DNA of 64,000 nucleotides from Pseudomonadota bacterium (GTDB lineage: Bacteria > Pseudomonadota > Gammaproteobacteria > Burkholderiales > Sulfuriferulaceae): positions 160,942-224,941 of the forward strand of contig JAZKBM010000007.1 in NCBI GenBank assembly GCA_040388645.1, in the 5' to 3' direction. Both the position numbers and the translations under genes were made by a program. How positions within the stretch are numbered: position 1 is the stretch's first letter; every line of letters starts with the position of its first letter. Of this stretch, positions 32,904-51,796 are shown one piece after another. The notes beneath the pieces are model-generated. The model did not search any database. It was given only the letters and a program-made list of their open reading frames with translations, and had not been told where the DNA came from.

Positions 32904-33182
32904 CTATACGTGACGAGCAATGAATATGATGGCAACCATTGTCATCAGGGATAAACCCGATACCCAGATGAGGTGTCGGCTCTGATTTTTGGAAATCAAT
33001 GTCAGCAACAAGATAGCCAGAGAGATCAATGCGGCTGGATAAGCAACGACGACCACCGTTTTAATCAGTGTATTGGAGGTGGACAAGGTACCCAGCGAAT
33101 ACCATCCGAAACAGCCGATGCCTGGTAAAGCCACAACCAGAATCACGCCGATTAACAATCGAATCGCAGTTGATGCTTGCAT
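32904..33182 (-). CDS. Small hydrophobic membrane protein, function unknown
   Basis: 92-aa ORF with three hydrophobic segments. I recognise no family. Confidence 0.35.
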   Translation of the reverse strand: MQASTAIRLLIGVILVVALPGIGCFGWYSLGTLSTSNTLIKTVVVVAYPAALISLAILLLTLISKNQSRHLIWVSGLSLMTMVAIIFIARHV

Positions 33183-33371
33183 ACATTCCCTGTTGAGAGA
33201 GGAAGATGATTAAAATTTAATGGCTAGTTATTGAAATAGACCGGGTCTTTTTGGTCCAATTTCCGGTAAGAAATGGTTCCCCATACCAATTCATTCTGGA
33301 TGGATGTCAGCTGCAAGATATTCAGGCCCACTCCGCCCAAGAATTGGCGGAGCATGGCGAGTTACGCCCGC

Positions 33372-34040
33372 CTAGTTGATACGCTTTATTTCAATCTCTG
33401 CCACCGGATTGCGCCAGTCATGCAGGGCAGGTGTCAGACCGCCTCCGCCATGAACGCCTGAATGCACGTAAACATATCCTTCAGCCGGTGCGGGGTCATG
33501 CACATGACTCCCGCATGGGGGTCCCGGGATAAATGCACAGTTTTCCGAGTTGGCTTCGCTGCCTGCATCATAGGCATCGGCTTCAATGGTCACAGTGCCG
33601 CGTCTTGGCGCCTGTATTCCGCGTACCGCCATGAATCCATCATTGGTGGAAACCAGCATTGAAGCGACAGAAATGTCCGAAAATTTGTTTGTCGTTTCAA
33701 TTTCGATAGTCATCGAAGCGCCAGGCATGATGCCACCTGTGCCTCTTGCCGTGCGATAAACCGATGGTATTGAAGCTGCCAGACCCAGTAGCGGGGATGG
33801 ATCCCCTTCTTCTGCGAGTGTGGCCAACTCAGGGCTGGAAGGGCTCCCCAGCTTGAATAGTTTATAGTCACCATTGTGTGCAATGACGGCAGGAGGGGCA
33901 AAGATTTGCCCGCGCGTGAGATTGGTAATGGTGATCGCGTAATGGCGCATACCATCGTCATCTGAATAGGCAGCTGGCGCAGCCAGAATTGCACTGGTAG
34001 CGAGTGCAGCTAGCATGACGGACAGGGTCGGTTTTTTCAT
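33372..34040 (-). CDS. Secreted spondin_N-like domain protein
   Basis: The start is taken at MKKPTLSVMLAALATSAILAAPAAYS, a signal peptide with AAGGAGA upstream. The body (YAITITNLTRGQIFAPP...STNDGF...YDAGSE) resembles bacterial spondin_N-domain proteins as I recall them. Confidence 0.55.
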   Translation of the reverse strand: MKKPTLSVMLAALATSAILAAPAAYSDDDGMRHYAITITNLTRGQIFAPPAVIAHNGDYKLFKLGSPSSPELATLAEEGDPSPLLGLAASIPSVYRTARGTGGIMPGASMTIEIETTNKFSDISVASMLVSTNDGFMAVRGIQAPRRGTVTIEADAYDAGSEANSENCAFIPGPPCGSHVHDPAPAEGYVYVHSGVHGGGGLTPALHDWRNPVAEIEIKRIN

Positions 34041-34642
34041 GTTATCTCCTTGGTTGATGGCGGAAAAATCCACCGGGACAAACAACCTGACAGGGCGTCG
34101 AGGGCGTCGTCCATCATCAGCATGGAGTACGCAGGTCTCAAGGAGATCACGATACGGTCACGTTTTCATTCTTAACGCATATATGTGACCTGCAAACCAA
34201 AGCACCAGTTACGGATACTTTACTTACCCTGATGCATGCTGGGGTCCAAAAAATAATCACCACCACTAGGTCATGTTTTCCCATGCCAATATTATTGATA
34301 CATGTCATCCATTCGCTGGTTTGCTTATATTCCAGCTATCGGAGTTTGCTTGTTGGACGAAAAAGCACAGATAGCTTTGACAAAGGGCTGTGGATTTCTG
34401 TGAATAGCCGTTCGATAACGCTGGTGCAAATCAACGAACGCTCACCCGGCCACATCGGTGGGCTGGACTGGGAGCTTACTTATTTTATGAGCTGACTTAT
34501 CAACTATTATTTTATCCAGTGGTTGACGTTGCTACCGTTCGTTCGCTAACAGACATTCTGCCTGGCCTTCTTTATGATTATTCAGAACAAATATTCAACA
34601 GTGGATATTTAAAAAATCAGGAATAAATAAGAGGAGAGGGGA

Positions 34643-35347
34643 TTGATCAACATGCCAGAATGGCTCGTTTATCTTGCGATCATTTCGCTGGTACTCGGCA
34701 TTGCGAGCGCCTTCCTTATTGCGATTGACCTTGTGAGAGGTCATCGCCAGCAGATGTGGATTATGAACCTGGTTTGGCCAATCACCGCCCTCTATTCCGG
34801 CCCCATCGGCCTTTGGTTTTATTTTTACGTTGGACGTCTATCAAGCCAGCAAAGCGTTCAAAATGCTGAAAGGCAGGGCAAAGAAAATCCAGGAAAAATG
34901 AAGCCCTTTTACCAAACAGTTGGGCTTGCCGCCACACATTGCGGAAGTGGCTGCACGGTGGGCGATATTCTGGTGGAGACAATACTTATAGTCGTCCCGC
35001 TTACGTTATTTGGTAAACCGATTTTTGCCGCATGGGTAATTGATTATATCGCCGCGTTTGCTTTCGGTATTGCTTTTCAATACTTCACAATCCAGCCAAT
35101 GCGGCATCTGCCGCCGCGTGAAGGATTGATAGCGGCACTTAAAGCTGACGCGCTGTCATTAACAGCATGGCAAATCGGTATGTACGGCTGGATGGGTATT
35201 GTGACCTTTGGGATTTTTGACCATGAATTGCCAAAAACCGGTCCCGTATTTTGGTTCATGATGCAAATCGCAATGTTGGCAGGCTTTGCGACGAGCTATC
35301 CAATCAATTGGTGGCTGGTGAAAGCCGGTATCAAGGAAAAAATGTGA
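34643..35347 (+). CDS. DUF4396-like polytopic membrane protein
   Basis: 234 aa with about six TM segments. It contains an HCGSGC motif (34937-34954) and resembles the DUF4396 family as I recall it. GAGGAGAGGGG lies upstream. Confidence 0.55.
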   Translation: MINMPEWLVYLAIISLVLGIASAFLIAIDLVRGHRQQMWIMNLVWPITALYSGPIGLWFYFYVGRLSSQQSVQNAERQGKENPGKMKPFYQTVGLAATHCGSGCTVGDILVETILIVVPLTLFGKPIFAAWVIDYIAAFAFGIAFQYFTIQPMRHLPPREGLIAALKADALSLTAWQIGMYGWMGIVTFGIFDHELPKTGPVFWFMMQIAMLAGFATSYPINWWLVKAGIKEKM

Positions 35348-35493: not shown

Positions 35494-35856
35494 ATGACAG
35501 CCTTGCAACAGTATGCATTGCTTCTCGGCTTGGCTGTGGGCGCTTTCGGACTGGTGGCCAGTCTGTTTTTCCTGATACGCGCTATGGGTCGCGCGCAAGT
35601 TGAAGTCGGTAAGGATGTACCGGCGACCGCAGGAAGTCTTTCCAGAGACCCGGTTTGGGTACGCTACCACGCTCATTACTATGGATACGCGTTGTTATTT
35701 CTAGCCTTTGATATGGAAATGGCTTTCATGTACCCATGGGCAGTCGTATACAAACAGGAAGGTATAGTGGCCTTGCTCGACATGGGGGTTTTCCTGGCCA
35801 TTCTTTTTCTTGGTTTGCTCTACGGCTGGAGTCAGGGTGCATTACGGAGACAGTAG
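35494..35856 (+). CDS. NuoA/ND3-like membrane subunit of a complex-I-like assembly
   Basis: 120 aa containing YYGYALLFLAFDMEMAFMYPWAVVY, which matches the NuoA signature (LFDVEVxFLYPWA). A GAGGAG RBS is present. Confidence 0.8.
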   Translation: MTALQQYALLLGLAVGAFGLVASLFFLIRAMGRAQVEVGKDVPATAGSLSRDPVWVRYHAHYYGYALLFLAFDMEMAFMYPWAVVYKQEGIVALLDMGVFLAILFLGLLYGWSQGALRRQ

Positions 35857-35857
35857 C

Positions 35858-37510
35858 GTGATCACCGGCGCACGTCAGGGTAAGCCCACTTGGCTAAACC
35901 GATTAATGGCTAGAGGCATGGCGCAAGATTTGCGTGCGATGATCGTGCCTGGAGTGGATTTGGCACGCGCACAAAATCTGGATGTCAGCGCCGCAGGCTT
36001 GCAGATTGCCGCCACGCCGCGTCATGCCAATGTACTGCTGGTGATTGGTCCGCTCTCGATAGAAATGCGGTCAGCCGCGGCTATTCTATATGCGCAGATG
36101 ATGCGTCCGCGTGCGATTTTAGCGCTCGGTAGCGGCGAACTCGCACCGTTACCGAAAGCCGACTGGCGTGCCGAGTTAAGCCAGCAGCACTTGCTCGAAG
36201 GTGTGGTTCAGCTCCGCAATGCGCTCATGGAGAGTGCTTTTCAATCCCATCCTGACGATTTCAAAGCGTCGATATTGGACGCTCACATCGAGTATACGTG
36301 TCCCATGCATCTGGAAGTTGTCCAGGATGCCCCCGGTTCCTGCCCAAAATGCGGCATGACCCTGATCCCGCGCGAAAGTGCTTCAGCTAATGAGTCCGGG
36401 CATGATCATAAGCAGCCGGATGAGGCGGACATGAAGCACGGTGACATGAAGCATGGTGACATGGATCACGGCGAGATGGACCACGGCGAGATGGGTTTCA
36501 TGTCCATGATCGAGGTTACCAAAGACCTGCCACGCAGTCCGGATGGCTTGCCGATGGACTGGTTGGACGTACCCTTTGGTCCCGTATTCCCTGGGCTGCC
36601 AGGCGGTTTGCTACTCACCCTGACGCTTGATGGGGATGCCGTTGCAAAGGTGCGTGTACAGTCGGTCGTCGGCGTAGGGGTTTCACTACCTGTAGGCGGG
36701 ATGAAAGCAGGTGAATTTGTTGAGCATTTGGCAATGCTTCATCCGCTTACCCCCATGGCCTATCGTGTGCTGGTCTGGCGCGCGCTGGAGGCAGCAAGCG
36801 GGCAGACCATGGATGTGGAAGTGTTGTATTGGCGCATGGCGGCGTTAGAGCGTGAACGCATTGCCAGTCATCTGGGCTGGCTGGCAATGCTGGGTTGGCA
36901 GATTGGCTTTGCGTGGCTAGAACGCCGTGCGGGAAAGATGCAACTCGAATGCCTGCGCGCGGAACTGCCGCAAATTATGTGCATGCGCCCAGATGTAGAA
37001 GCGCTGGTGGCTCGTTTGGCCCATACACCGTTCCTGCATTCCCGGCTTTCCGGTGTAGGAGTTATTGCACCCAACCCCGGCTTGCGAGGGCCGATAGCGC
37101 GGGCTACGGGTATGTGCTCTGATTTCCGCTTGACCGATGACACGTATCAATCTCTGAAATTTGAAGTAATGAATCGGAAAGGCGGGGACGCACTAGCGCG
37201 GTTACACATTCGACTCGATGAAATGTTGCAAAGCTTCGCACTTATCGAATCCGCAGGCGTTCTGAAAGAATCCGAATTTGTTGTTGCCAACACAAACACA
37301 GGAGAAGGTCACGCCAATGTCGAAACGCCGCGCGGTGAAGCCAGTCTGCATCTGACGTTGGAAAACGGCAGGGTGATGCAGGCGCATCTGGATACACCTT
37401 CAACTTTTCACTTGAGTCTGCTGCCCCAACTGCTTGCCCAGCAAGAGCTGGGAGATGCGCTCACGACCGTGTGTTCCCTTGATTTATCGCCGTGGGAGAT
37501 CGTGGCATGA
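35858..37510 (+). CDS. NuoB-like :: heavy-metal-binding domain :: His/Met-rich repeat :: NuoD-like fusion protein
   Basis: The start is GTG 35858, with GGAG 8 nt upstream, 1 nt after the nuoA-like stop. The NuoB-like segment reads ATPRHANVLLVIGPLS...ILALGSGE and contains no Cys. The metal-binding domain YTCPMHLEVVQDAPGSCPKCGMTL spans 36293-36376. The repeat reads DMKHGDMKHGDMDHGEMDHGEM. The NuoD-like segments are PFGPVFPGLPGGLLLTLTLDGDAV and ETPRGEASLHLTLENGRVMQAHLDTPSTFHL. Confidence 0.75.
   Translation: MITGARQGKPTWLNRLMARGMAQDLRAMIVPGVDLARAQNLDVSAAGLQIAATPRHANVLLVIGPLSIEMRSAAAILYAQMMRPRAILALGSGELAPLPKADWRAELSQQHLLEGVVQLRNALMESAFQSHPDDFKASILDAHIEYTCPMHLEVVQDAPGSCPKCGMTLIPRESASANESGHDHKQPDEADMKHGDMKHGDMDHGEMDHGEMGFMSMIEVTKDLPRSPDGLPMDWLDVPFGPVFPGLPGGLLLTLTLDGDAVAKVRVQSVVGVGVSLPVGGMKAGEFVEHLAMLHPLTPMAYRVLVWRALEAASGQTMDVEVLYWRMAALERERIASHLGWLAMLGWQIGFAWLERRAGKMQLECLRAELPQIMCMRPDVEALVARLAHTPFLHSRLSGVGVIAPNPGLRGPIARATGMCSDFRLTDDTYQSLKFEVMNRKGGDALARLHIRLDEMLQSFALIESAGVLKESEFVVANTNTGEGHANVETPRGEASLHLTLENGRVMQAHLDTPSTFHLSLLPQLLAQQELGDALTTVCSLDLSPWEIVA
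36428..36502 (+). repeat. Tandem 15-bp coding repeat (four full copies plus one decayed copy) encoding (D/E)M(K/D)HG
   Basis: The units are gacatgaagcacggt, gacatgaagcatggt, gacatggatcacggc and gagatggaccacggc, followed by the decayed unit gagatgggtttcatg. They lie in frame inside the B/D fusion ORF. Confidence 0.85.
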
Positions 37511-38403
37511 ACACGCTTGCCGTGGTGTTATTCCTGTTGGCGGGAGCGTATCTGGTTGCTGTGCTGGAAGCATGGTTGGCGCACGGCCGTTTCCAGCTTG
37601 CGGCGCCGGCTTGGGCGGCCATGGCACTGCTGGGCCAGGAATCCGTCGTGCCGCGCACGCCAGACCGATTGTTCTTTGAAACCGCACCGGTTCTGCTACT
37701 GATTGCCGCGTTGCTTGCCGCAGCAGTGCTGCCGCTGAGCCCGACGCTGGTCATTACCAATTTGGCCACCGGGGCGCTATTCATCAATGCAGCGCTGGCG
37801 TATGTGCTGGTGGCGCTATTGATGGCCGGATGGGGGCCGAATGGTGCCTACGCACTGGTAGGTGGCTGGCGTTTCCTGGGGGAGGTGGTCGCCTATTCCA
37901 TGCTGATTGTCATGCCCATTACGGCAGTCGCAATGCGCGCCGAGTCGCTGCTTACTACGGATATCGTAGTTTCTCAAAAAGGTGTATGGAATATCGTTTA
38001 TCAGCCACTCGGCTTCGTTCTCTTTTTCATCGCCGCTTTGGCCGTGTCCTTTCTGCCGCCTTTCGACCTTCCCACAGCCAAGGGTGAATTGGCGGGTGGC
38101 GTAGAAGCTGAATATACCGGCACACGCCTGGCAATATTTCGCCTTGGCAGAATGGTGCTGGTCGTCTCCATGGCAACCGCCATTACGGTGTTTTTTCTGG
38201 GTGGCTGGCTAGGTCCCGGACTACCCGGATGGGCTTGGAGTGCCTTAAAAATTCTTTGCGTGAGCGCAGCGATGCTGCTTGCCGGGCATTATTTGCCGCG
38301 TATTCGCGAGGCGCATCTGCTGGCCTGGAGCTGGAAGCTGGGAATCCCGCTGGCGCTACTCAATCTGCTTGTCGTTGGTGTGATGGTGTTGATATGGCCA
38401 TGA
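37507..38403 (+). CDS. NuoH/ND1-like membrane subunit
   Basis: The ATG at 37507 forms an ATGA overlap with the fusion ORF stop, with GGGAG upstream. Conserved blocks are GWGPNGAYALVGGWR, PPFDLPTAKGELAGGVEAEYTG and LPRIREAHLLAWSWK. The N-terminal loop is divergent. Confidence 0.8.
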   Translation: MNTLAVVLFLLAGAYLVAVLEAWLAHGRFQLAAPAWAAMALLGQESVVPRTPDRLFFETAPVLLLIAALLAAAVLPLSPTLVITNLATGALFINAALAYVLVALLMAGWGPNGAYALVGGWRFLGEVVAYSMLIVMPITAVAMRAESLLTTDIVVSQKGVWNIVYQPLGFVLFFIAALAVSFLPPFDLPTAKGELAGGVEAEYTGTRLAIFRLGRMVLVVSMATAITVFFLGGWLGPGLPGWAWSALKILCVSAAMLLAGHYLPRIREAHLLAWSWKLGIPLALLNLLVVGVMVLIWP

Positions 38404-38924
38404 TTTCACTACAGACACTATTTATCGCATTTTTTGGAGCTGCTACCGTCGCGTTTGGCGTGGCGGTATTTCGCACTTCGTCGATGATGCGTTCGGCATT
38501 GGCGCTGCTGTTTTCTCAAACCGCACTAGGTGCGATGTTTCTGGCCATGCAGGCGGAGTTTCTTGGTGTATTGCAGATCATGATGATGGCAACTGAGATG
38601 AGCATCATGGCTATCTTTATGGTGATGTTCATGATGGATCCGGGTGGCCTGGGTGAAATGGAAATGTCTCACCAGAAACGACTATCCATTTTTGCCGGGA
38701 TCGCAGCTGCGCTGGTTACCGCTGGCATCGCGCTGTTCTCGGATTGGGGCACATCTAGTGTGGCACCGTTGGCGGCGGATCAGGTGCGCGCGTTGGGTAC
38801 GGAACTGCTGGGCCGGTCAATGCTGATTTTCGAGACTGCGGGCGTCACGATTCTGACAGCAATGATCGCCGCCACGGCAGTGGCAATGCCGGTGCTGCAA
38901 CGAAAGAGATCTGATGAACCCTGA
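38400..38924 (+). CDS. NuoJ/ND6-like membrane subunit
   Basis: About 174 aa and hydrophobic, located in the nuoJ position between the H-like and K-like genes. The ATG at 38400 forms an ATGA overlap with the previous stop; ATG 38394 is an alternative start. The track ORF starts much earlier, inside the H-like gene. Confidence 0.65.
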   Translation: MISLQTLFIAFFGAATVAFGVAVFRTSSMMRSALALLFSQTALGAMFLAMQAEFLGVLQIMMMATEMSIMAIFMVMFMMDPGGLGEMEMSHQKRLSIFAGIAAALVTAGIALFSDWGTSSVAPLAADQVRALGTELLGRSMLIFETAGVTILTAMIAATAVAMPVLQRKRSDEP

Positions 38925-39225
38925 TCTGCTCATTGCCCTGCTAACCGGCGCTGCCTTGTTTGGTATTGGAATCTACGGTGCTTTATCGCAGACCAATCTG
39001 GTCATGATCATGATGGGTGTGGAGCTGATTCTGGCCGGGGCCTTGGTTAATCTGGTTGCATTCTGGCGATTTTTATATCCGGATAATTATGCTGGCCAGA
39101 TGTTCGTGCTCATTGTCATGACGGTGATGGCACTGGAAATGGCAGTCGGTTTCGGCGTGGCGATTGCGCGTTTTCGCGCCAGGGGATCAGTGGAAATGGA
39201 AGAAGCCCAGGAGCTGAAAGGATGA
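38914..39225 (+). CDS. NuoK/ND4L-like membrane subunit
   Basis: 103 aa with three helices. Both conserved membrane Glu contexts are present (MGVELILAG and MALEMAVGFG). Confidence 0.8.
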   Translation: MNPDLLIALLTGAALFGIGIYGALSQTNLVMIMMGVELILAGALVNLVAFWRFLYPDNYAGQMFVLIVMTVMALEMAVGFGVAIARFRARGSVEMEEAQELKG

Positions 39226-41120
39226 ACCTCCTCGCGCTGGTCGTGCTGACGCCGCTCGCGGCGGCAGCCCTGATCCCGTTGTTACGCCGCGCACCCGCTG
39301 CCGTGGCCCTGCTGGGCGCGGTCATTGGGCTCTTTGCGAGTCTGTGGCTGCTGGCCGGTGCGTCGGACGGTATGCACCCGGTGCTGATCCTCCCCGGACT
39401 GCCTGACATGCCCCTGCGCCTGATTGCAGAACCGCTGAATGCGCTCTTGTCTGTGATGGTCGGCGTCGTCGGCATTTTTGTGCTGGTCTATGCCGTCGGC
39501 TATATGAAAGAAGATCCCGCCCAGCCGCGCTTCTTTGCCATCATGTCATTTTTTATTGCCGCCATGCAGACCCTGGTACTGGCCGGGGATTGGGTGTTAT
39601 TGCTGGCCGCTTGGGAACTCATCGGATTGAGCAGCTATCTGCTGATCGGCTTCTGGTACCAGCGCCCCGGGATAACGGCAGCCGCCACGCGGGCCTTCCT
39701 TTATACGCGTAGCGCCGACCTTGGTCTTTATGCGGCGGTGTTTATTCTGATTGCCGCGAGCGGCAGCAGCGAGATTGCCGCTTCTTTGCATACGGGGAGT
39801 ACAGCCGCCTTGGCCGCAGGGTTCATGTTGTTACTCGCTGCCATGGGCAAGTCGGCCCAAGTGCCGTTGCAGGACTGGCTGCTTGGCGCCATGGCAGGCC
39901 CGACGCCGGTCTCGGCTTTGTTGCATTCGGCCACGCTGGTGGCGGCCGGGGCCATCCTGCTGATCCGTACCGCGCCGCTGTTGCCGCCTGATGTGCTGCT
40001 TGCCATTGGTTTGGTGGGGGGTGTGACCACCGCGGTCGCTGGTCTCAGCGCGTTGGGATCATCGGACCTCAAGCGCTTATTGGCAGCATCAACTTCCAGC
40101 CAGTATGGTCTCATGCTGGTGGCGGTGGGTGCCGGCGTTCCGCTGGCGGCACTGCTGCATCTGATTGCCCATGCGGCTATCAAGAGTTCACTGTTTCTTG
40201 GTGCTGGTGTGTTTCAGCATAGCCGCGAGTCCACCCGGCTAACCGACTTGAATGGTGTCGGCCGTGATCGGCCACGTATCTTCGCCGGCTTCGTGCTGGC
40301 GGCGTTGGCGCTGGCCGGTATTCCACCTTTGAGCGGGTTTTTTTCCAAGGATGCCGTCATTGCCGCGGCCCTGTCTTCGGAACATGCGGCCGTGTTCGGT
40401 TCGCTCGCCTTGGCCGGTACCTTATTGACAGGGGCCTACATGGCTCGAGCCTTGCGCATACTCTGGCGTGGTGAACGCCAGCAGCGACAAGTGGCTGGGC
40501 TGGTTTGGATGGGTGCCGGACTCGCCGGTCTGGTCAGTCTGGCTGTCCTCTTGGGACTTGCTTTTCCGTCTATCGAGGGGCTGATGTTAAATCACCTGCC
40601 AGAAAGCGCTGTTGCACAAATGGCGGGGGTGGGCGCGATGCTCACCGGTTTGATATTGGGCTGGTTTGTTGGTGGCCGACGTATGCTCGGACCACTGCAG
40701 AGCTGGGCGCAGCAAGACTTTGTCATCGCTGGTGGCATGGATAGATGGGTGGTGCGCCCGGTTTTGGCGGTGGCCCAGGCTTGCGAGCAATTTGAAAACA
40801 AACTCTACAGAACGGTGCTCATGGCCGCACGTCCGGCACTGGCGCTTGCTCGGGTCAGCAGGCAATTGGAAAGCAGACTCTACAATGCGGTGCTCGCATT
40901 GGGTCGGCTCAACTGCGGCATAGGGCGAGGGGTACGCATGAGCGACGAGCGCGGCATCGATGGACTGATTTTCGCCTTGGTGCGTGGCAGTGTGGCGCTG
41001 GGTGAAAAGGTGCGCGCTTTGCAAAGCGGCCTGATCCACCGCGAACTGGCGATGAGTGTACTGGGCACCGCCGTTATACTGGCCGCGCTGATGGCCGGTT
41101 TGTTGTCTTTAAAATACTGA
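39222..41120 (+). CDS. NuoL/ND5-like antiporter-type subunit
   Basis: 632 aa containing AAWELIGLSSYLLIGFW and KSAQVPLQDWLLGAMAGPTPVSALLHSATLVAAG. A long C-terminal helix plus a terminal TM segment is consistent with the NuoL lateral helix. Confidence 0.85.
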   Translation: MNLLALVVLTPLAAAALIPLLRRAPAAVALLGAVIGLFASLWLLAGASDGMHPVLILPGLPDMPLRLIAEPLNALLSVMVGVVGIFVLVYAVGYMKEDPAQPRFFAIMSFFIAAMQTLVLAGDWVLLLAAWELIGLSSYLLIGFWYQRPGITAAATRAFLYTRSADLGLYAAVFILIAASGSSEIAASLHTGSTAALAAGFMLLLAAMGKSAQVPLQDWLLGAMAGPTPVSALLHSATLVAAGAILLIRTAPLLPPDVLLAIGLVGGVTTAVAGLSALGSSDLKRLLAASTSSQYGLMLVAVGAGVPLAALLHLIAHAAIKSSLFLGAGVFQHSRESTRLTDLNGVGRDRPRIFAGFVLAALALAGIPPLSGFFSKDAVIAAALSSEHAAVFGSLALAGTLLTGAYMARALRILWRGERQQRQVAGLVWMGAGLAGLVSLAVLLGLAFPSIEGLMLNHLPESAVAQMAGVGAMLTGLILGWFVGGRRMLGPLQSWAQQDFVIAGGMDRWVVRPVLAVAQACEQFENKLYRTVLMAARPALALARVSRQLESRLYNAVLALGRLNCGIGRGVRMSDERGIDGLIFALVRGSVALGEKVRALQSGLIHRELAMSVLGTAVILAALMAGLLSLKY

Positions 41121-41149
41121 TTCGGAATATTTAAAAAGGAGAATCCGGC

Positions 41150-42619
41150 GTGCTTCCCATTGTGTCGATAACCCTGTTTCTGCCGGTGCTGGGGGCACTG
41201 TCTGTCATGGCCTTGCGCCGCACATCTGCCTCGGTTGTACACGGTATCGGCATACTCACAAGTGCGCTGGTGTTGTTGGGTGCGCTGTGGATGTGGGCGC
41301 GTGGCGTAGAGCCGGGAGGTTACTCACAGATAGAGCAAATCGACTGGATGCCGACTATCGGCGCCAGTTACCGGGTGGGTGTGGATGGTATCAGCTTGCC
41401 GCTGGTATTGTTGAGTGCGTTGTTGTTCTTTCTGTCGTTTATTTTTTCGTCCAAGGTGAAACAACGTCCCCACGCCTACGTGGTGTTGATGCTCCTGCTC
41501 GAGACGGCATCGATCGGCACCTTTACCGCGCTGGATGGATTGCTTTTCTACGTCTTTTTCGAAGTGTCGCTGGTCTCGATGTATTTCATGATTGCCGGTT
41601 GGGGCCATGAGGATCGGCAGCGTGCCGCGCTGATGTTCTTCCTCTATACTCTGCTTGGCAGCCTGCCGCTGCTACTCGCCATTCTCGCGCTCTATCTGGG
41701 CGGCGCGCAGCATACTTTTGACATGCGAGCCTGGATTGCCCATCCGCCGTTGACTGGCACGACGGCCATGCTGGCGTTTATCGCCATGTTATTTACCTTT
41801 GCGGTCAAGACACCGGTATTTCCCTTGCATGCATGGCTGCCGGCTGCTCACGTGCAGGCGCCAACTACCGGCAGTGTTCTCCTGGCAGGTGTCATGCTTA
41901 AATTCGGTGCCTACGGCCTGATACGCTTCGCGCTGCAGATGACGCCCGATGCCTTCCGTGAAATCGGTACCGTGGTTCTTACGCTCGGCGTATTCAGTGC
42001 GTTGTATGGCGCTTTTGCCGCGCTTGCGCAAAGCGATCTGAAGCGCATGGTCGCCTATACCTCGGTCAACCATATGGGTTACGTGGTGGTCGGCGTGGCC
42101 ATCGCTGCCCTGGCCACCGATCCAGCGATTCGCGCGACGGCGCTGGATGGTTCCGTATTGCAGATGGTTAGCCATGGGGTGGTCACCGGCGCGCTGTTCT
42201 TTCTGGTCGGCATGCTGGACGACCGCGCACATACGCGCGAGATGGAAAACTTCGGTGGTCTGCTGAAGTTCGTGCCACTGCTGGGCTGGTCGTTCGTGCT
42301 GGCGGCCTTCGCTTCACTCGGCCTGCCGGGGCTGGCCCATTTTCCTGCCGAGTTCCAGATCTTTCTCGCCACGCTGCGTGAGGCGCCAGTGGCGCTCATT
42401 GTCATTCTCGGTATTGTGATTACGGCCGGCCTGTATTTGCGTGCTATCGGCAAAGTATTTTTTGGCGCGCCGCGTGAACAATGGGCCGGGATGCCTGATC
42501 TGAACGCGCGAGAGGTTCTGACCCTGGTGCCGTTACTGGTGCTGATTATCCTCATCGGTATTGCACCCACGTGGTTACTGAACCCCATTCATCAGACTAC
42601 CGCGGCGCTGCATTTTTGA
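41150..42619 (+). CDS. NuoM/ND4-like antiporter-type subunit
   Basis: 489 aa with a GTG start. It contains FYVFFEVSLVSMYFMI, AVKTPVFPLHAWLPAAHVQAPTTGSVLLAGVMLKFGAYG and SVNHMGYV. Confidence 0.85.
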   Translation: MLPIVSITLFLPVLGALSVMALRRTSASVVHGIGILTSALVLLGALWMWARGVEPGGYSQIEQIDWMPTIGASYRVGVDGISLPLVLLSALLFFLSFIFSSKVKQRPHAYVVLMLLLETASIGTFTALDGLLFYVFFEVSLVSMYFMIAGWGHEDRQRAALMFFLYTLLGSLPLLLAILALYLGGAQHTFDMRAWIAHPPLTGTTAMLAFIAMLFTFAVKTPVFPLHAWLPAAHVQAPTTGSVLLAGVMLKFGAYGLIRFALQMTPDAFREIGTVVLTLGVFSALYGAFAALAQSDLKRMVAYTSVNHMGYVVVGVAIAALATDPAIRATALDGSVLQMVSHGVVTGALFFLVGMLDDRAHTREMENFGGLLKFVPLLGWSFVLAAFASLGLPGLAHFPAEFQIFLATLREAPVALIVILGIVITAGLYLRAIGKVFFGAPREQWAGMPDLNAREVLTLVPLLVLIILIGIAPTWLLNPIHQTTAALHF

Positions 42620-42635
42620 TGGGTAGGCAAGCCGC

Positions 42636-44021
42636 ATGACACAGATGACCAACGATCTGTTGCACCTGATCCCGGAGATTGTGGTGCTGTGCACCGGCGC
42701 GGGTGCCTTGGTGTTCGAGATGTTGCGCATGCCGCGCGCCGGGCTGGCTTTTGCCGTCGCCGGCTTGCTGCTCGCTACCGGCCTGACCCTCCCGTTGCTG
42801 GGTGTGGATATCGAGGTATTCGGCGGCACCTTTCGCATCGACACGCTGAGTGTCTGGGCCAAGTTGATTCTATTGCCGGCCACTGCTTTGTCCCTGTTAC
42901 TGGCGCGTGCCGAGCTTGCCGACAGCGATCGGGAAGGGACTGTTTACAGCCTGCTCTGCTTTGTCACGTTTAGTGCATTGATACTGGCCGGGAGCGGCGA
43001 CACCATGTTTTTGGTGCTGGGCGTACTGCTGTCTTCGCTGGGGTCATTCGCGCTGGTCGCTTATCCTCGAAACGATGCGGCGACGGAAGCCGCCATGAAG
43101 TTTTTCGTTTTCGCTTCGGTGACGGGGGGCGTGATGATTTTCGGACTCACTTACTGGTTTGGCGCCACCGGGTCAACGCTCTTCAATCAGCTTGTACTGC
43201 TTGATCAGATGCCGCTCGCTGCGACGATTGGTCTGGTCGGTGTGGTGACTGGATTGGGGTATAAGGCATCCTTGGCACCCTTCCATTTCTGGGCGCCCGA
43301 TGCGTATCAAGGCGCACCGGTATCGATCGCTGCTTATCTCTCCGTTGTGCCGAAGATCGGGGCGATTTTTGCGTTGGCTCAGGTGCCGCGTGATTTGCCG
43401 GTAACCAGCGGCTGGCCCCAAATGATTGCGGTTGTTGCGGTACTCAGCATGTCCTGGGGCTATCTCGCTGCGCTGGTGCAGCAAAATGTCGTCAGGCTGC
43501 TGGCTTATTCATCGATTGCTCAAGCAGGCTATTTTTTACTCGGTATTGTTGCGATAGGCGCGAGTTCCTTGGCGCTGCCCTCGCTAATTGTGTTTGCCGC
43601 TGCCTACGCCGCGATGAATCTGGGCGCGTTTGCCATTATTCAGCTCACAGGCCATGCATTGGAAGCCTACAAAGGCATAGGGCGCACCCAGCCGCTACGT
43701 GGTGTGGTGATGACGATATTCCTGATATCGCTGGTGGGGATTCCTCCACTAGCCGGATTTGCAGGGAAATTTCTGCTTTTCGGCGCGGCCATGGACGCCC
43801 ATTTCACTTGGCTGGCATTGCTTGCTGTGCTTAACACGGTCCTTTCGCTGGCAGTATATTTACGCATTATTGTGCCTATGTATCGGCCATGTGAAACCGC
43901 TCATCAATCCACACAGCAAAATGCACCAGGATTGCTGATTACAACCGTTTGGTGGATTGCGCTGATCGTCACTATTGGACTCGGTTTAATGGCGCAATTG
44001 ATACTCGGCGTTATTCATTAG
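42636..44021 (+). CDS. NuoN/ND2-like antiporter-type subunit
   Basis: 461 aa containing GYKASLAPFHFWAPDAYQGAPVSIAAYLSVVPKIGA and SSIAQAGYFLLG. Confidence 0.85.
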   Translation: MTQMTNDLLHLIPEIVVLCTGAGALVFEMLRMPRAGLAFAVAGLLLATGLTLPLLGVDIEVFGGTFRIDTLSVWAKLILLPATALSLLLARAELADSDREGTVYSLLCFVTFSALILAGSGDTMFLVLGVLLSSLGSFALVAYPRNDAATEAAMKFFVFASVTGGVMIFGLTYWFGATGSTLFNQLVLLDQMPLAATIGLVGVVTGLGYKASLAPFHFWAPDAYQGAPVSIAAYLSVVPKIGAIFALAQVPRDLPVTSGWPQMIAVVAVLSMSWGYLAALVQQNVVRLLAYSSIAQAGYFLLGIVAIGASSLALPSLIVFAAAYAAMNLGAFAIIQLTGHALEAYKGIGRTQPLRGVVMTIFLISLVGIPPLAGFAGKFLLFGAAMDAHFTWLALLAVLNTVLSLAVYLRIIVPMYRPCETAHQSTQQNAPGLLITTVWWIALIVTIGLGLMAQLILGVIH

Positions 44022-46185: not shown

Positions 46186-46980
46186 ATGACCATCCTCACC
46201 TGGATTATTACTGCCAGTCTGCTCGGTAGTGCGTTGAGTGTATTGGTTGCATCGATCTTTGCCTATGCTGCCAAGCCCAGTTGGGTTGGGATGTTGGTAA
46301 GCTACGCGATTGGTGCGTTGCTGGGCGCGGTTTTTCTGGAAATATTGCCGCATGCGTTTGAGGCTTCGGGCAACGCCCACACTACTGCCGCCACAGTACT
46401 GGCAGGAATCATGGGATTCTTCGTGCTGGAGAAGCTGGTGTTATGGCGCCACTGCCATCACGAAACCTGCGAAACGCATGGTTTGGAGCCCGCCCATCAG
46501 CAAGATCATGGCGGTTTCGATCATGGTCGCAGTGGCATGATGATCCTGGTCGGCGATACTTTTCATAATTTCGTCGATGGCATTTTGATCGCGGCTGCGT
46601 TCCTTGCAGATATAGAATTGGGCATCATCACCGCACTGGCCATTATCACCCACGAGATTCCGCAGGAAGTCGGCGATTTCCTGATCCTGCTGCACTCGGG
46701 TTACAGCAAGGCACGTGCATTGGCTTATAACTTGCTCTCCAGCGCTGCCACACTGGTCGGTGGTTTGCTGGCGTACTTTGCGCTGCAATCCATGCAGAAT
46801 ATGGTGCCGGTATTCCTTGGTTTGGCGGCGGCGAGCATGATTTACGTCGCGGTTGCTGACCTGATTCCCGGCCTGCATAAACGCGTGGGACTGACTGCTA
46901 CCGTTGAGCAGGTGTTGCTGATTGGCGCCGGCATTGCGACCATTGCGGTGACAGAGATGCTGGTGGGCAAATACGCTTAA
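46186..46980 (+). CDS. ZIP-family divalent metal transporter (ZupT/GufA-like)
   Basis: 264 aa with a His-rich loop (HCHHETCETHGLEPAHQQDHGGFDHG) and the ZIP signature HNFVDG...THEIPQEVGDF. Confidence 0.85.
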   Translation: MTILTWIITASLLGSALSVLVASIFAYAAKPSWVGMLVSYAIGALLGAVFLEILPHAFEASGNAHTTAATVLAGIMGFFVLEKLVLWRHCHHETCETHGLEPAHQQDHGGFDHGRSGMMILVGDTFHNFVDGILIAAAFLADIELGIITALAIITHEIPQEVGDFLILLHSGYSKARALAYNLLSSAATLVGGLLAYFALQSMQNMVPVFLGLAAASMIYVAVADLIPGLHKRVGLTATVEQVLLIGAGIATIAVTEMLVGKYA

Positions 46981-50071: not shown

Positions 50072-51628
50072 CTATAAATGCAAACTAGCTAGCCAGACCT
50101 TACCTGGAACGATTCCAAGTGCCCCTTGTGCGATTCCAAGCGAGGCTCTGGCTGCCGCCAGCGGTCTCAAAGCTACGGCATTTTTGCGTAACCATTTTTG
50201 AGCGCCGCTGACTCCATCTGATCGGGTAAGTGCGGCCATTAGGGCCTGCACAGACCGAGCTTGCATTTCATCGTTGGCAATACTCCTAGCCATTTCTAGC
50301 CAGCTTGTTAAAACTTGCGGCGGCGGCGATTTGGCGGCAACAGCGACGATAATGGTTGCTTGAATGGCCGAATTTGGAATATTTCGCCAAGTTGCCTGGG
50401 CATCGCTATAAGAACCCTGGCGAGCTTCAGCAATTGCTAGTGCTTCAAGGGCACTCTGATAAAGCGGTGAACTATTAGATATGTCGTGATGCATCAAGCC
50501 AATTGCACGTCGCGCACCGGGTAGGTCAAGTCTTAGAGAGCAGGCCCTAGAAATTTCGCTAAGCATAAACTTGGCATCGGTTCCGGGCTTGTGGACAAGT
50601 TGAAGTGCCATATCGATATCTCCTATGTTCGCATATCCCCGTGCCACATTGAGCCAAGCAATCCAACACTGCTGATCGTTGTCCTGTCCATCACATTGCT
50701 TGGCAGCTGCATTTGTAGCCAGTTGAAGGGTGTTCTTGGAGAACTCTTTGTTTTTTGCGGCATTAGAAATCTGCACATACAAGCTAACCCTTTCCGCCGG
50801 TAAACTGACCTGCAACACCAAATTACGCGCCTTTTCTAAAGCGTTTATACGGATATAGACTTGGTCCTCTTGGAAAAGGTGTCCCGTATCTGAATATGTC
50901 ATGATTATGTCGTTGATTAACTGTTCCGCGGCACGTTGTTTCTTTCGTTTTCTCAGCTCGTCAATCAGCAAAAAGCGAGGATCATCTTCACTCTTCCAGA
51001 ACACCTTTGGGTCGGCCACAGCGCGTATCGCATCTGATAGCTCGGGGTGAGTAACTCCATATTCGATCAGATCATGAACATGCAACAACATGTCGGACGT
51101 CATGGGCTGGTCAAGATTTATCGGCTCAATCAAGTCTTTCACTTGTTGGCGACGCCCTTGATGTAAGTAAGCGAGAGCTAGCGCATAGCGAGCCTTCGCA
51201 AAAAACGAATCTTGATCCGTAAAATGTTCGATAAGCTTGGAAGATGATTCAATGTCTCCTTGTGCCGCATACTCAACCCCTAAGTGCCATTCGGCTTCTT
51301 TCTTTAGTTTAGGTGAATCAATCTGTTCAATTGCCTTTGCCGCCTCTTGTTTGCATCCTGCTGTGCCGAACGCAACAGCGATGTCTGGAATTAGCCGTGA
51401 AAAATCCGAACGCAAATCATCAAAGTCCGTCGCATTTTCAAATCCTATAGGGCCTATTTTTGGCAACTTCGTCGCCAAGTTTAGCGCCTCAAGCAATACT
51501 CCACGTATCTGGCTGTCACAGTTAGGGGTAGCAATTGGTGTAACTTGTGCAATACACAGTGGTGCCGCTACCACGGAAGTCAACACAGCCAGTGCCACGC
51601 AATGGATTACTCTGGAATAGGCTTTCAT
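50072..51628 (-). CDS. Secreted helical-repeat (TPR-like) protein, function unknown
   Basis: The start is taken at MKAYSRVIHCVALAVLTSVVAAPLCIAQ, a signal peptide. The body is alpha-helical repeat-like (ALALAYLHQGRRQQ, ARGYANIGDIDMAL, AIAEARQGSYSDAQ). It lies in AT-rich DNA. Confidence 0.5.
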   Translation of the reverse strand: MKAYSRVIHCVALAVLTSVVAAPLCIAQVTPIATPNCDSQIRGVLLEALNLATKLPKIGPIGFENATDFDDLRSDFSRLIPDIAVAFGTAGCKQEAAKAIEQIDSPKLKKEAEWHLGVEYAAQGDIESSSKLIEHFTDQDSFFAKARYALALAYLHQGRRQQVKDLIEPINLDQPMTSDMLLHVHDLIEYGVTHPELSDAIRAVADPKVFWKSEDDPRFLLIDELRKRKKQRAAEQLINDIIMTYSDTGHLFQEDQVYIRINALEKARNLVLQVSLPAERVSLYVQISNAAKNKEFSKNTLQLATNAAAKQCDGQDNDQQCWIAWLNVARGYANIGDIDMALQLVHKPGTDAKFMLSEISRACSLRLDLPGARRAIGLMHHDISNSSPLYQSALEALAIAEARQGSYSDAQATWRNIPNSAIQATIIVAVAAKSPPPQVLTSWLEMARSIANDEMQARSVQALMAALTRSDGVSGAQKWLRKNAVALRPLAAARASLGIAQGALGIVPGKVWLASLHL

Positions 51629-51796
51629 GACTTCACCAAGGCCCTCGTTTAACAATGAAGCATCGTGCATTTATTTAAAATGGATGGCAAGCGCGACCGT
51701 CGGCTTATGGAACGTTGCGGTCCTTGGCGAACGGCAGCTACCTGGCAACCGAATCATCGAGATTTCCAAAAACAGGCCAATCAATAAAGGTCGCAA

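Follow-up and report, generated by a model that had tools for sequence, protein, structure and literature searches.

A cofactor-less descendant of complex I with a heavy-metal-binding cap is a candidate proton-driven copper exporter

There is continuing debate over how events at the quinone site of complex I are coupled to proton channels that lie as much as 200 Å away. Homologous subunits are found in Mrp, which swaps cations for protons. In CusA, CusF, and Ctr1, clusters and relays of methionine carry Cu(I) or Ag(I). To our knowledge, no complex-I-type subunit carries a transition metal as its substrate. Among the reduced relatives of complex I, the energy-converting-hydrogenase-related group (Ehr) joins a large-subunit homologue without NiFe ligands to antiporter-like subunits (PMC6349859). 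In Marinobacter atlanticus, an organism whose main NADH dehydrogenase is Nqr, a 'nuoADHJKL' cassette interrupts a copper-resistance cluster and is co-expressed with cop genes on cathodic electrodes, and the authors guessed that copper redox reactions might power ion pumping there (Eddie et al. 2021, PMC8233155). Here, we describe eight complex-I-type genes, hereafter the cassette, at positions 35494-44021 of a 64-kb stretch of a Sulfuriferulaceae genome (assembly GCA_040388645.1, contig JAZKBM010000007.1, positions 160942-224941), which we call the window; all coordinates given are positions within it unless a locus is named. We put at about even the chance that the cassette encodes a stand-alone, cofactor-less descendant of complex I that exports Cu(I), and perhaps Ag(I), at the expense of the proton-motive force.

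The cassette genes are co-directional and, by inspection of the open reading frames (ORFs), translationally coupled, and all eight frames are intact. The nuoA-like gene (35494-35856, plus strand as are all the others; 120 aa; PF00507, Oxidored_q4, E 3.5e-23) precedes a gene for a NuoB::NuoD-type fusion protein (35858-37510; 550 aa), which overlaps the nuoH-like gene (37507-38403; 298 aa; PF00146, E 8e-56) by an ATGA at 37507-37510. A second ATGA at 38400-38403 links nuoH to a methionine-rich nuoJ-like gene (38394-38924, starting at ATG 38394 or 38400; PF00499), an overlap of 11 nt at 38914-38924 links nuoJ to the nuoK-like gene (38914-39225; PF00420), and a third ATGA at 39222-39225 links nuoK to the nuoL-like gene (39222-41120). 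Spacers of 29 nt and 16 nt stand ahead of the nuoM-like gene (41150-42619) and the nuoN-like gene (42636-44021), respectively. An initial annotation, made by reading the sequence alone, had described this packing with all of its overlaps and had assigned the eight products to NuoA, a NuoB::NuoD fusion, and NuoH, J, K, L, M, and N; both points were confirmed, the second by Pfam and NCBIfam profile searches. NuoM matched TIGR01972 with 492 bits (cutoff 263.8) and NuoN matched TIGR01770 with 283.6 bits. The NuoL model NF005141 was matched end to end, over residues 1-625 of 632, and this includes the lateral helix that had been proposed from the C-terminal tail. Every ion-path motif quoted in that annotation is present in the translations, and its remark on a higher GC content holds by a modest margin (0.572 for the cassette versus a mean of 0.517 +/- 0.019 and a maximum of 0.567 for other 8.5-kb windows). 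The claimed absence of the input subunits was likewise borne out: tblastn with E. coli queries gave no hit to a free NuoB or to any of NuoC, E, F, G, and I, whether across the 64-kb window or within the stretches available for 86 related loci.

The fusion protein, which takes the position of the peripheral cap, has lost the redox sites of its ancestors. Alignment with 16 homologues placed its start at GTG 35858, one base past the nuoA stop; the same alignment ruled out TTG 35810. The protein comprises a short NuoB-like stretch (B', 35969-36145), a heavy-metal-binding domain (HMBD, 36293-36370; PF19335, E 5.5e-13), a His/Met/Asp-rich linker (36371-36496), and a NuoD/49-kDa-like domain (D', 36497-37507; Complex1_49kDa, PF00346). 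The HMBD scored 49.1 bits against a cutoff of 23.6 and PF00346 scored 75 bits, the NuoB signal is weak (PF01058, Oxidored_q6, 18 bits, below threshold; NCBIfam NuoB subfamily, E 1.6e-7), and no NCBIfam model reaches its cutoff. A profile search of the PDB with the fusion returned NdhH, NuoD, MbhL, HycE, NDUFS7/MbhJ, and the CopA N-terminus. B' aligns solely with residues 87-129 of E. coli NuoB (hhalign probability 82%, E 1.1e-5) and appears as a degenerate NuoB/PSST remnant; MbhJ and NDUFS7 were independently matched by the same stretch in the PDB search. The N2 ligand Cys129 of E. coli NuoB aligns with a Gly, and an alignment of 17 fusion sequences revealed no conserved Cys in B'.

The D' domain is altered at the quinone site. 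The quinone head-group ligands of NuoD are those corresponding to Thermus thermophilus Nqo4 H38, in the beta1-beta2 loop, and Y87. In place of the quinone-His motif 'GPxHPxxHG', the D' loop carries an invariant 'GPxFPGLPGG', and the quinone Tyr of 'WDY' aligns with a Pro. D' has no conserved Cys in the 17 sequences and no NiFe-type cysteines, and the same alignment shows no conserved Cys anywhere in the fusion outside the HMBD. A new feature is an invariant H-x4-FMSM...M-x-W segment with which D' opens, ahead of its first strand. An AlphaFold2 model of the fusion gave predicted local distance difference test (pLDDT) scores of 70-93 over residues 268-560, and Foldseek with this model identified the D' fold as 49-kDa/NuoD, with NDUFS2, NuoD, HycE, and MbhL as top matches (TMt ~0.6).

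The HMBD contains the sole conserved Cys/His cluster of the fusion. Its C-x2-H ... C-x2-C residues (C164, H167, C178, and C181) are invariant in 17/17 sequences, and the PDB profile search showed homology to the N-terminal domain of the Cu(I) P-type ATPases 8ovl and 3rfu. Taken together, these features predict that the domain binds metal. Across the family, one to seven HMBD copies occur per fusion, and the linkers between them, when pooled, consist of 24.7% His and 13.4% Asp. The linker in the window reads DMKHG DMKHG DMDHG EMDHG EM and is encoded in part by a 15-nt tandem repeat (36428-36494, ~4 copies), each unit of which specifies one (D/E)M(K/D)HG pentapeptide. The linker has 40 aa here versus 85 aa in the 93%-identical orthologue from a Sulfuriferula metagenome-assembled genome (MAG; locus L001), and therefore the number of linker repeats changes fast between close relatives. 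Six contigs (L026, L030, L042, L044, L078, and L081) start inside the fusion gene, just past the HMBD/linker region. Metagenome assemblies probably break at the repeated HMBD units, and fusion lengths and HMBD counts in MAGs are therefore likely underestimated.

The membrane arm keeps its proton machinery nearly complete. Conservation was scored by aligning 66-76 orthologues per subunit with the E. coli subunit, and E. coli numbering is used here unless stated. In NuoL, E144, D178, K229, H338, K342, and K399 are kept in 73/73 orthologues, H334 is His in 67/73, and D400 is Asp in 71 and Glu in 2. In NuoM, E144, K234, K265, H322, H348, and E407 are kept in 70/70. NuoK retains E36 (76/76) and E72 (75/76), which are E37 and E75 in the window protein, and NuoA retains D79 and E81 (both 76/76), which are D73 and E75. 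Each canonical Glu, Lys, and His of L, M, K, and A is thus kept in at least 67/73 orthologues, and nearly all are invariant. NuoN has K158, K217, K247, and K395 in 66/66 and a His at H224 in 63/66. The initial annotation had singled out the loss of the NuoN TM5 Glu (TM, transmembrane helix), and this proved to be a trait of the family: E133 is Leu131 in the window and Leu (58) or Val (8) in all 66 orthologues.

NuoH and NuoJ are altered as well. NuoH keeps E71, D79, R148, D213, E220, E228, R291, and R293, with E157 replaced by Ala or Ser and E216 by Thr in 58/75. A segment of ~20 residues that contains E36 and R37, at the end of TM1 and in the first loop, is missing from NuoH in 75/75 orthologues, a loss that points to a rebuilt entrance to what was the quinone tunnel. 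In NuoJ, Y59 is replaced by Met, E55 by Gln, and Y49 by Glu.

A further change is a gain of methionine in the E-channel subunits. Met makes up 10.8% of NuoJ in the window (family median 10.3%, range 7.6-12.6, n=76) versus 2.7% of E. coli NuoJ, and it is the commonest invariant residue of J, with 15 of 91 invariant columns. NuoK has 7.8% Met versus 4.0% in E. coli; L, M, and N show no Met enrichment. The gain in J is centered on TM3 and the loop that follows it (38580-38672 by orthologue alignment). M63-M64-M65, E68, M69, M72, M76, M80, and M81 of the helix and D82, M89, M91, and H93 of the loop are conserved in 76/76 orthologues, and the canonical NuoJ proteins of T. thermophilus, Paracoccus denitrificans, and E. 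coli have V, I, L, Y, or A at the methionine positions. TM3 should run from the periplasm to the cytoplasm, judging from the positive-inside rule and from the N-out/C-in topology known for NuoJ, and this orientation would place the Met/His loop on the cytoplasmic side near the cap. In K, the invariant methionines are M31, M34, M63, M69, M72, M76, and M95; M31 and M34 precede E37, M69 and M72 precede E75, M76 follows it, and there is a C-terminal E-M-E-E motif. NuoA has family-invariant M74, M76, M79, M97, and H59 around D73 and E75 (D73-M74-E75-M76), and NuoH has gained the invariant methionines M111, M137, M141, M148, and M261, of which M137 adjoins the replaced E157. The orthologue alignments thus place new methionines beside each E-channel carboxylate. 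Within J TM3, M65, M69, M72, M76, and M80 lie on one helix face (resultant 0.88), this subset having been chosen post hoc.

These features belong to a widespread family. The fusion has hundreds of relatives with the same HMBD and 49-kDa architecture, which form ~161 clusters at 50% identity (E <= 1e-30) in an exhaustive search of 1.84 billion representatives, and relatives turned up in 175 species when one genome of each species was scanned. The family motifs FMSM(I/V)(D/E)VT and PFGP(F/V)FPG are both present in the window fusion. Most carriers are marine, vent, or sulfur Gammaproteobacteria (Thiogranum, Thiohalobacter, Marinobacter, Alcanivorax, and Halomonas), some are Alpha- and Betaproteobacteria, and the fusion is found on 12 plasmids, including plasmids of Rubrobacter (Actinomycetota). 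Among the 86 loci that were compared, 65 have the order A-BD-H-J-K-L-M-N and every deviation coincides with a contig end; L, M, and N are all present at each uncut locus, those of other Marinobacter included. NuoE, F, and G are also missing from the Pfam and RefSeq annotation of L001-L003, L005, L006, L088, and L089. Nor do the annotated loci show NuoC, NuoI, or a free NuoB. When the window was compared with the 93%-identical orthologue from Sulfuriferula, the ratio of nonsynonymous to synonymous substitution rates (dN/dS) was 0.03-0.25 across the eight genes.

By these alignments, the complex has no route for electrons, and its proton machinery is intact and under selection. The view in the initial annotation that the cluster encodes an ion-translocating machine that cannot be an NADH:quinone oxidoreductase is therefore well founded: the N-module, NuoC and NuoI, the N2 ligands, and the quinone His and Tyr are gone, and the seven-subunit arm is present with its proton residues, apart from the NuoN TM5 Glu. 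The methionine enrichment of J and K is an addition to what that annotation had noted, as is the copper-island context described next.

The genomic neighborhood of the family was surveyed by unlabelled clustering of flanking ORFs in the 86 loci (~10 kb upstream and 3.5 kb downstream), followed by Pfam checks. The most frequent neighbor family is a CopA-type multicopper oxidase (17 loci), followed by histidine kinases and an amino-acid-permease-like protein (16 loci each), response regulators, CopB, and an APC-type permease (PF27187; 12 loci each), an NDH-2/SQR-like flavoprotein (11 loci), and P1B-ATPases with HMBD and YHS domains (10 loci). At least one metal-related gene is present in 45/86 loci. 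The island of Thiogranum longum contains CopA, CopB, a cupredoxin, CusRS, and YHS, and a Roseovarius plasmid carries copA, copB, CDF, azurin, and Tn7-like genes. A Rubrobacter plasmid combines a P1B-ATPase, CsoR-type regulators, a multicopper oxidase, DUF305, a four-helix copper-binding protein, and DUF4396. A conjugative plasmid of Paracoccus has insertion sequence (IS) elements and a P1B-ATPase, and a Nitratireductor plasmid from a vent plume has MerR, a multicopper oxidase, DUF1775, and CopD. Among the 86 loci, no neighbor accompanies the cassette everywhere, and the eight genes therefore form a self-contained unit. In eight loci (e.g., L002 8406-9590), a Pyr_redox_2 flavoprotein of the NDH-2/SQR-like type (~400 aa) lies directly upstream of and co-oriented with nuoA; it could be a partner specific to this subset, for example a metal reductase. 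Other recurring neighbors of the cassette, in the Marinobacter, Alcanivorax, and Halomonas lineages (L003 9124-9571 and 21121-21333; flanks of L075 and L068), are small DUF2933 and DUF5676 proteins, an ICMT/PEMT-like methyltransferase, the APC-type permease (PF27187), and unannotated proteins of 460 aa and 82 aa, in up to 12 loci.

We propose a four-step cycle for the candidate exporter. The HMBD(s) and the His/Met/Asp linker of the cap would capture cytoplasmic metal, which would then pass to the junction of cap and membrane, where the J loop with its Met and His residues, the E-M-E-E tail of K, and the H-x4-FMSM...M-x-W stretch that opens D' are expected to form a site. From there, the metal may cross the membrane along the former E-channel, past the A and K carboxylates and the methionines of J, K, A, and H that surround them. 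Protons moving inward through the conserved channels of L, M, and N would drive the conformational cycle, with the lateral helix as a link. The overall scheme would correspond to complex I running in reverse without redox chemistry, following an Mrp-like logic of metal/H+ antiport. The cation/H+ exchange of Mrp, the Na+/H+ antiport described for deactive complex I (PMC3464577), and the methionine relays of CusA, CusF, and Ctr1 make it plausible. Three to four protons per cycle would provide approximately the driving force of ATP hydrolysis, which would suit a cytoplasm with extremely low free copper. The fuller account, in which the redox modules were lost and the quinone chamber and E-channel were remodelled with methionines to give an exporter of Cu(I)/Ag(I) driven by the proton-motive force, we hold at slightly below an even chance.

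Several points weigh against the exporter proposal. The pLDDT is below 50 for B', the HMBD context, and the linker, which makes the model informative for D' alone. The substrate may be a metal other than the one proposed, as Zn(II), Ni(II), or Cu(II) would fit linkers rich in His and Asp as well. About half of the loci have no recognizable metal gene in the flanks surveyed, and near the cassette in the window the metal-related genes are the DUF4396 gene and a ZIP transporter gene only. Finally, the eight methionines of J TM3 taken as a whole are not one-sided (permutation p 0.38), and the methionines may line a continuous path or may instead face lipid or subunit interfaces.

An alternative to the exporter is a metal-regulated H+ or Na+/H+ transporter, with the HMBD cap as a sensor or gate that switches the flux on under metal stress, for example in adjusting pH or membrane potential. 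Its membrane arm would move H+ or alkali cations alone, in the manner of Mrp or deactive complex I. The proton residues of L, M, N, K, and A are intact, L resembles MrpA more than any other family except NuoL, an HMBD could act as a sensor, and deactive complex I is described as a Na+/H+ antiporter (PMC3464577). However, such a transporter leaves unexplained the 15 invariant methionines of J and the 8 of K, clustered at the E-channel, and sensing does not account for one to seven HMBDs with long His-rich linkers. Islands that already hold CusRS, MerR, or CsoR are also not obviously in need of a further sensor, and we regard this alternative as unlikely.

It is less probable still that the complex is a redox-driven pump whose electron-input partner is encoded elsewhere, either as the upstream NDH-2/SQR-like flavoprotein or as a shared NuoEFG. 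The authors of PMC8233155 speculated along similar lines. The flanks of 11 loci contain a Pyr_redox_2 gene, which in 8 loci immediately precedes nuoA in the same orientation, and cupredoxins and cytochromes c occur in some flanks. Yet no cofactor residue is left between a donor and the membrane, with the N2 ligands, NuoI, the quinone His/Tyr, and the NiFe cysteines all absent, and the flavoprotein is missing at most loci, this window included. The cupredoxins, moreover, are periplasmic, whereas the cap is expected to be cytoplasmic from the topology of complex I and the lack of a signal peptide.

A third possibility accepts transport of Cu(I) and assigns it a different role, namely the loading of periplasmic cuproenzymes (CopA-type oxidases, azurins, and oxidases) rather than resistance. 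FixI/CtpA-type ATPases perform such loading, and the cassette often has genes for multicopper oxidase, plastocyanin/azurin, cupredoxin, or cytochrome c nearby. The same islands, however, hold the detoxification genes CopB, CusRS, CDF, P1B-ATPase, CsoR, and MerR, and the plasmids and IS- or Tn7-flanked islands that carry the cassette are typical of resistance cargo. The M. atlanticus cassette is induced alongside copper-stress genes (PMC8233155). We consider a supply route quite improbable. The remaining idea, a decaying remnant of a nuo operon after local deletion, for which six missing or degenerate canonical subunits and NCBIfam equivalog scores below their cutoffs, that of NuoM excepted, might speak, has a negligible chance and is excluded, together with a pseudogene, by intact and translationally coupled frames, dN/dS values of 0.03-0.25 for every gene, an identical architecture at 65 complete loci that span two phyla and several classes, the ~161 clusters, and the finding that nuoC, E, F, G, or I is adjacent in 0/86 loci.

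The immediate surroundings of the cassette in the window are particular to its lineage. A DUF4396 membrane protein is encoded upstream (34643-35347, plus strand, likely start ATG 34652; Pfam E 2.7e-46; dN/dS 0.10) and a convergent AsmA gene downstream, as the initial annotation had stated and Pfam confirmed. That annotation had proposed surveying the conservation of the gene order and of the DUF4396 neighbor, and of these the order was found to be conserved (65/86) and the neighbor was not: by BLAST, DUF4396 adjoins the cassette in 3/86 loci, all from Sulfuriferula. DUF4396 and AsmA were accordingly dropped as conserved partners, since both are adjacent only in Sulfuriferula; DUF4396 is also found in metal islands elsewhere. 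In the window, the DUF4396 gene may be co-transcribed with the cassette. Homology to the Sulfuriferula MAG begins abruptly ~130 nt upstream of the DUF4396 gene, and this conserved block of ~130 nt (34505-34640) may hold the promoter. No inverted repeats were found when the sequence ahead of DUF4396 and of nuoA was searched for palindromic operators, those of MerR/CueR type included, and promoter-like matches there were at the level expected from shuffled sequence. The stretch between a shared GGDEF-EAL gene and DUF4396 (window ~33000-34505; L001 6500-8600) differs between the two genomes, and in the window it contains ORFs at 33372-34085 (minus strand) and 34232-34495 with no significant Pfam match. 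Downstream, the AsmA gene is followed by the ZIP-family transporter gene (46186-46980), which is also present in the Sulfuriferula MAG. Farther on, a 532-aa ORF (50072-51670, minus strand) without a Pfam match at E <= 1e-5 lies in a stretch of low GC (0.45-0.47).

If the exporter reading is true, the cassette would add to the P1B-ATPases and the RND pumps a third class, by energy source, of systems that remove copper from the cytoplasm, powered by protons rather than ATP, and would be the first case of complex-I-type subunits that translocate a heavy metal. A whole membrane arm whose proton residues are strongly selected and that works without electron transfer is a natural experiment on coupling. 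There being no redox chemistry, the long-range conformational coupling of complex I would, if the exporter reading holds, be isolated for study. The cassette travels on plasmids and in genomic islands of bacteria that live in the sea, at hydrothermal vents, or in association with sulfur or metals, it can be tested in tractable hosts, and it should be informative on distant coupling in complex I. There is also a consequence for annotation. Pipelines label the cassette genes 'NADH-quinone oxidoreductase subunit' and 'Ni,Fe-hydrogenase III large subunit', and counts of complex I and hydrogenase in metabolic reconstructions of the carrier genomes are therefore inflated.

Whether such a system had been described before was addressed by full-text literature searches, which gave only a passing mention of a related cassette (PMC8233155); the opinion in the initial annotation that the subunit set is not a described system stands. 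The HMBD fusion, the loss of the cofactor sites, the family distribution, and the methionine signature are absent from PMC8233155, and a genome survey of complex I (PMC12361115) does not mention such a variant. A paper on silver stress in Haloferax was set aside as a precedent, as it concerns canonical nuoCD. The M. atlanticus cassette resembles the one in the window in having no input modules and in its D-like gene, annotated as 'NiFe-hydrogenase III large subunit', the name that the Joint Genome Institute (JGI) gives to family members. By its description alone, it differs in having one antiporter-like subunit without a lateral helix and no nuoM or nuoN.

Comparison of match scores bears on descent. 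The initial annotation had tentatively placed the cluster in the Ehr radiation, and this placement was rejected, as bona fide Nuo subunits are the top-scoring matches of H, L, M, and N, well above Mrp or Mbh. The best PDB match of H is E. coli NuoH (169 bits), with no Mbh or FHL match at E<=1e-3, and L matched NuoL/Nqo12 with 225-252 bits versus ~150 for MrpA and 85 for MbhH. D' taken alone is ambiguous (NdhH 95, MbhL 84.5, NuoD 76, and HycE 70 bits). The NCBIfam Mrp models fall far below their cutoffs and below the Nuo models, and the gene set is not MrpA-G. Judged by these scores, the system is a derivative of complex I (Nuo) by descent and not of Ehr, Mbh, or Mrp.

The likeness to complex I extends to all seven membrane subunits, with A first and then the canonical order H-J-K-L-M-N, to the conserved proton-channel positions in L, M, K, and A, to the lateral helix of NuoL, and to the homologues of NuoB and NuoD. 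In contrast to complex I, the cassette has no NuoC, E, F, G, or I, its B is a remnant without N2 ligands that is fused to D, and its D lacks the quinone His and Tyr; it has gained the HMBD(s), the His-rich linker, and Met-rich J and K, and the NuoN TM5 Glu, NuoH E157, and NuoJ Y59 are replaced. Mrp is similarly cofactor-less and built from NuoL/M/N-type and small NuoK/J-like subunits, but it has no homologues of NuoH, A, B, or D and no cytoplasmic cap, and its substrates are Na+ and K+. With Ehr, Mbx, and MBS, the cassette shares a large-subunit homologue, D', without Ni/Fe-binding cysteines. Those systems, however, are thought to be redox enzymes with Fe-S subunits, partner oxidoreductases, and Mrp-type membrane modules, whereas the arm described here is of Nuo type (A, J, K, and L with a lateral helix) and no Fe-S site is left.

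Among copper transport systems, CusCBA, CusF, Ctr1, and the CopA P1B-ATPases differ from the cassette in having unrelated folds and energy coupling, and they resemble it in the HMBD of Cu-ATPase type, the M-x-M and M-x3-M clusters in TM helices, and the islands they share. DabAB/MpsAB, finally, differ in using a single PF00361 subunit rather than a whole arm and in having another substrate. DabB2 was among the PDB matches of L, and DabAB/MpsAB likewise recruit a complex-I antiporter-like subunit to a non-redox vectorial process together with a cytoplasmic metal-containing partner.

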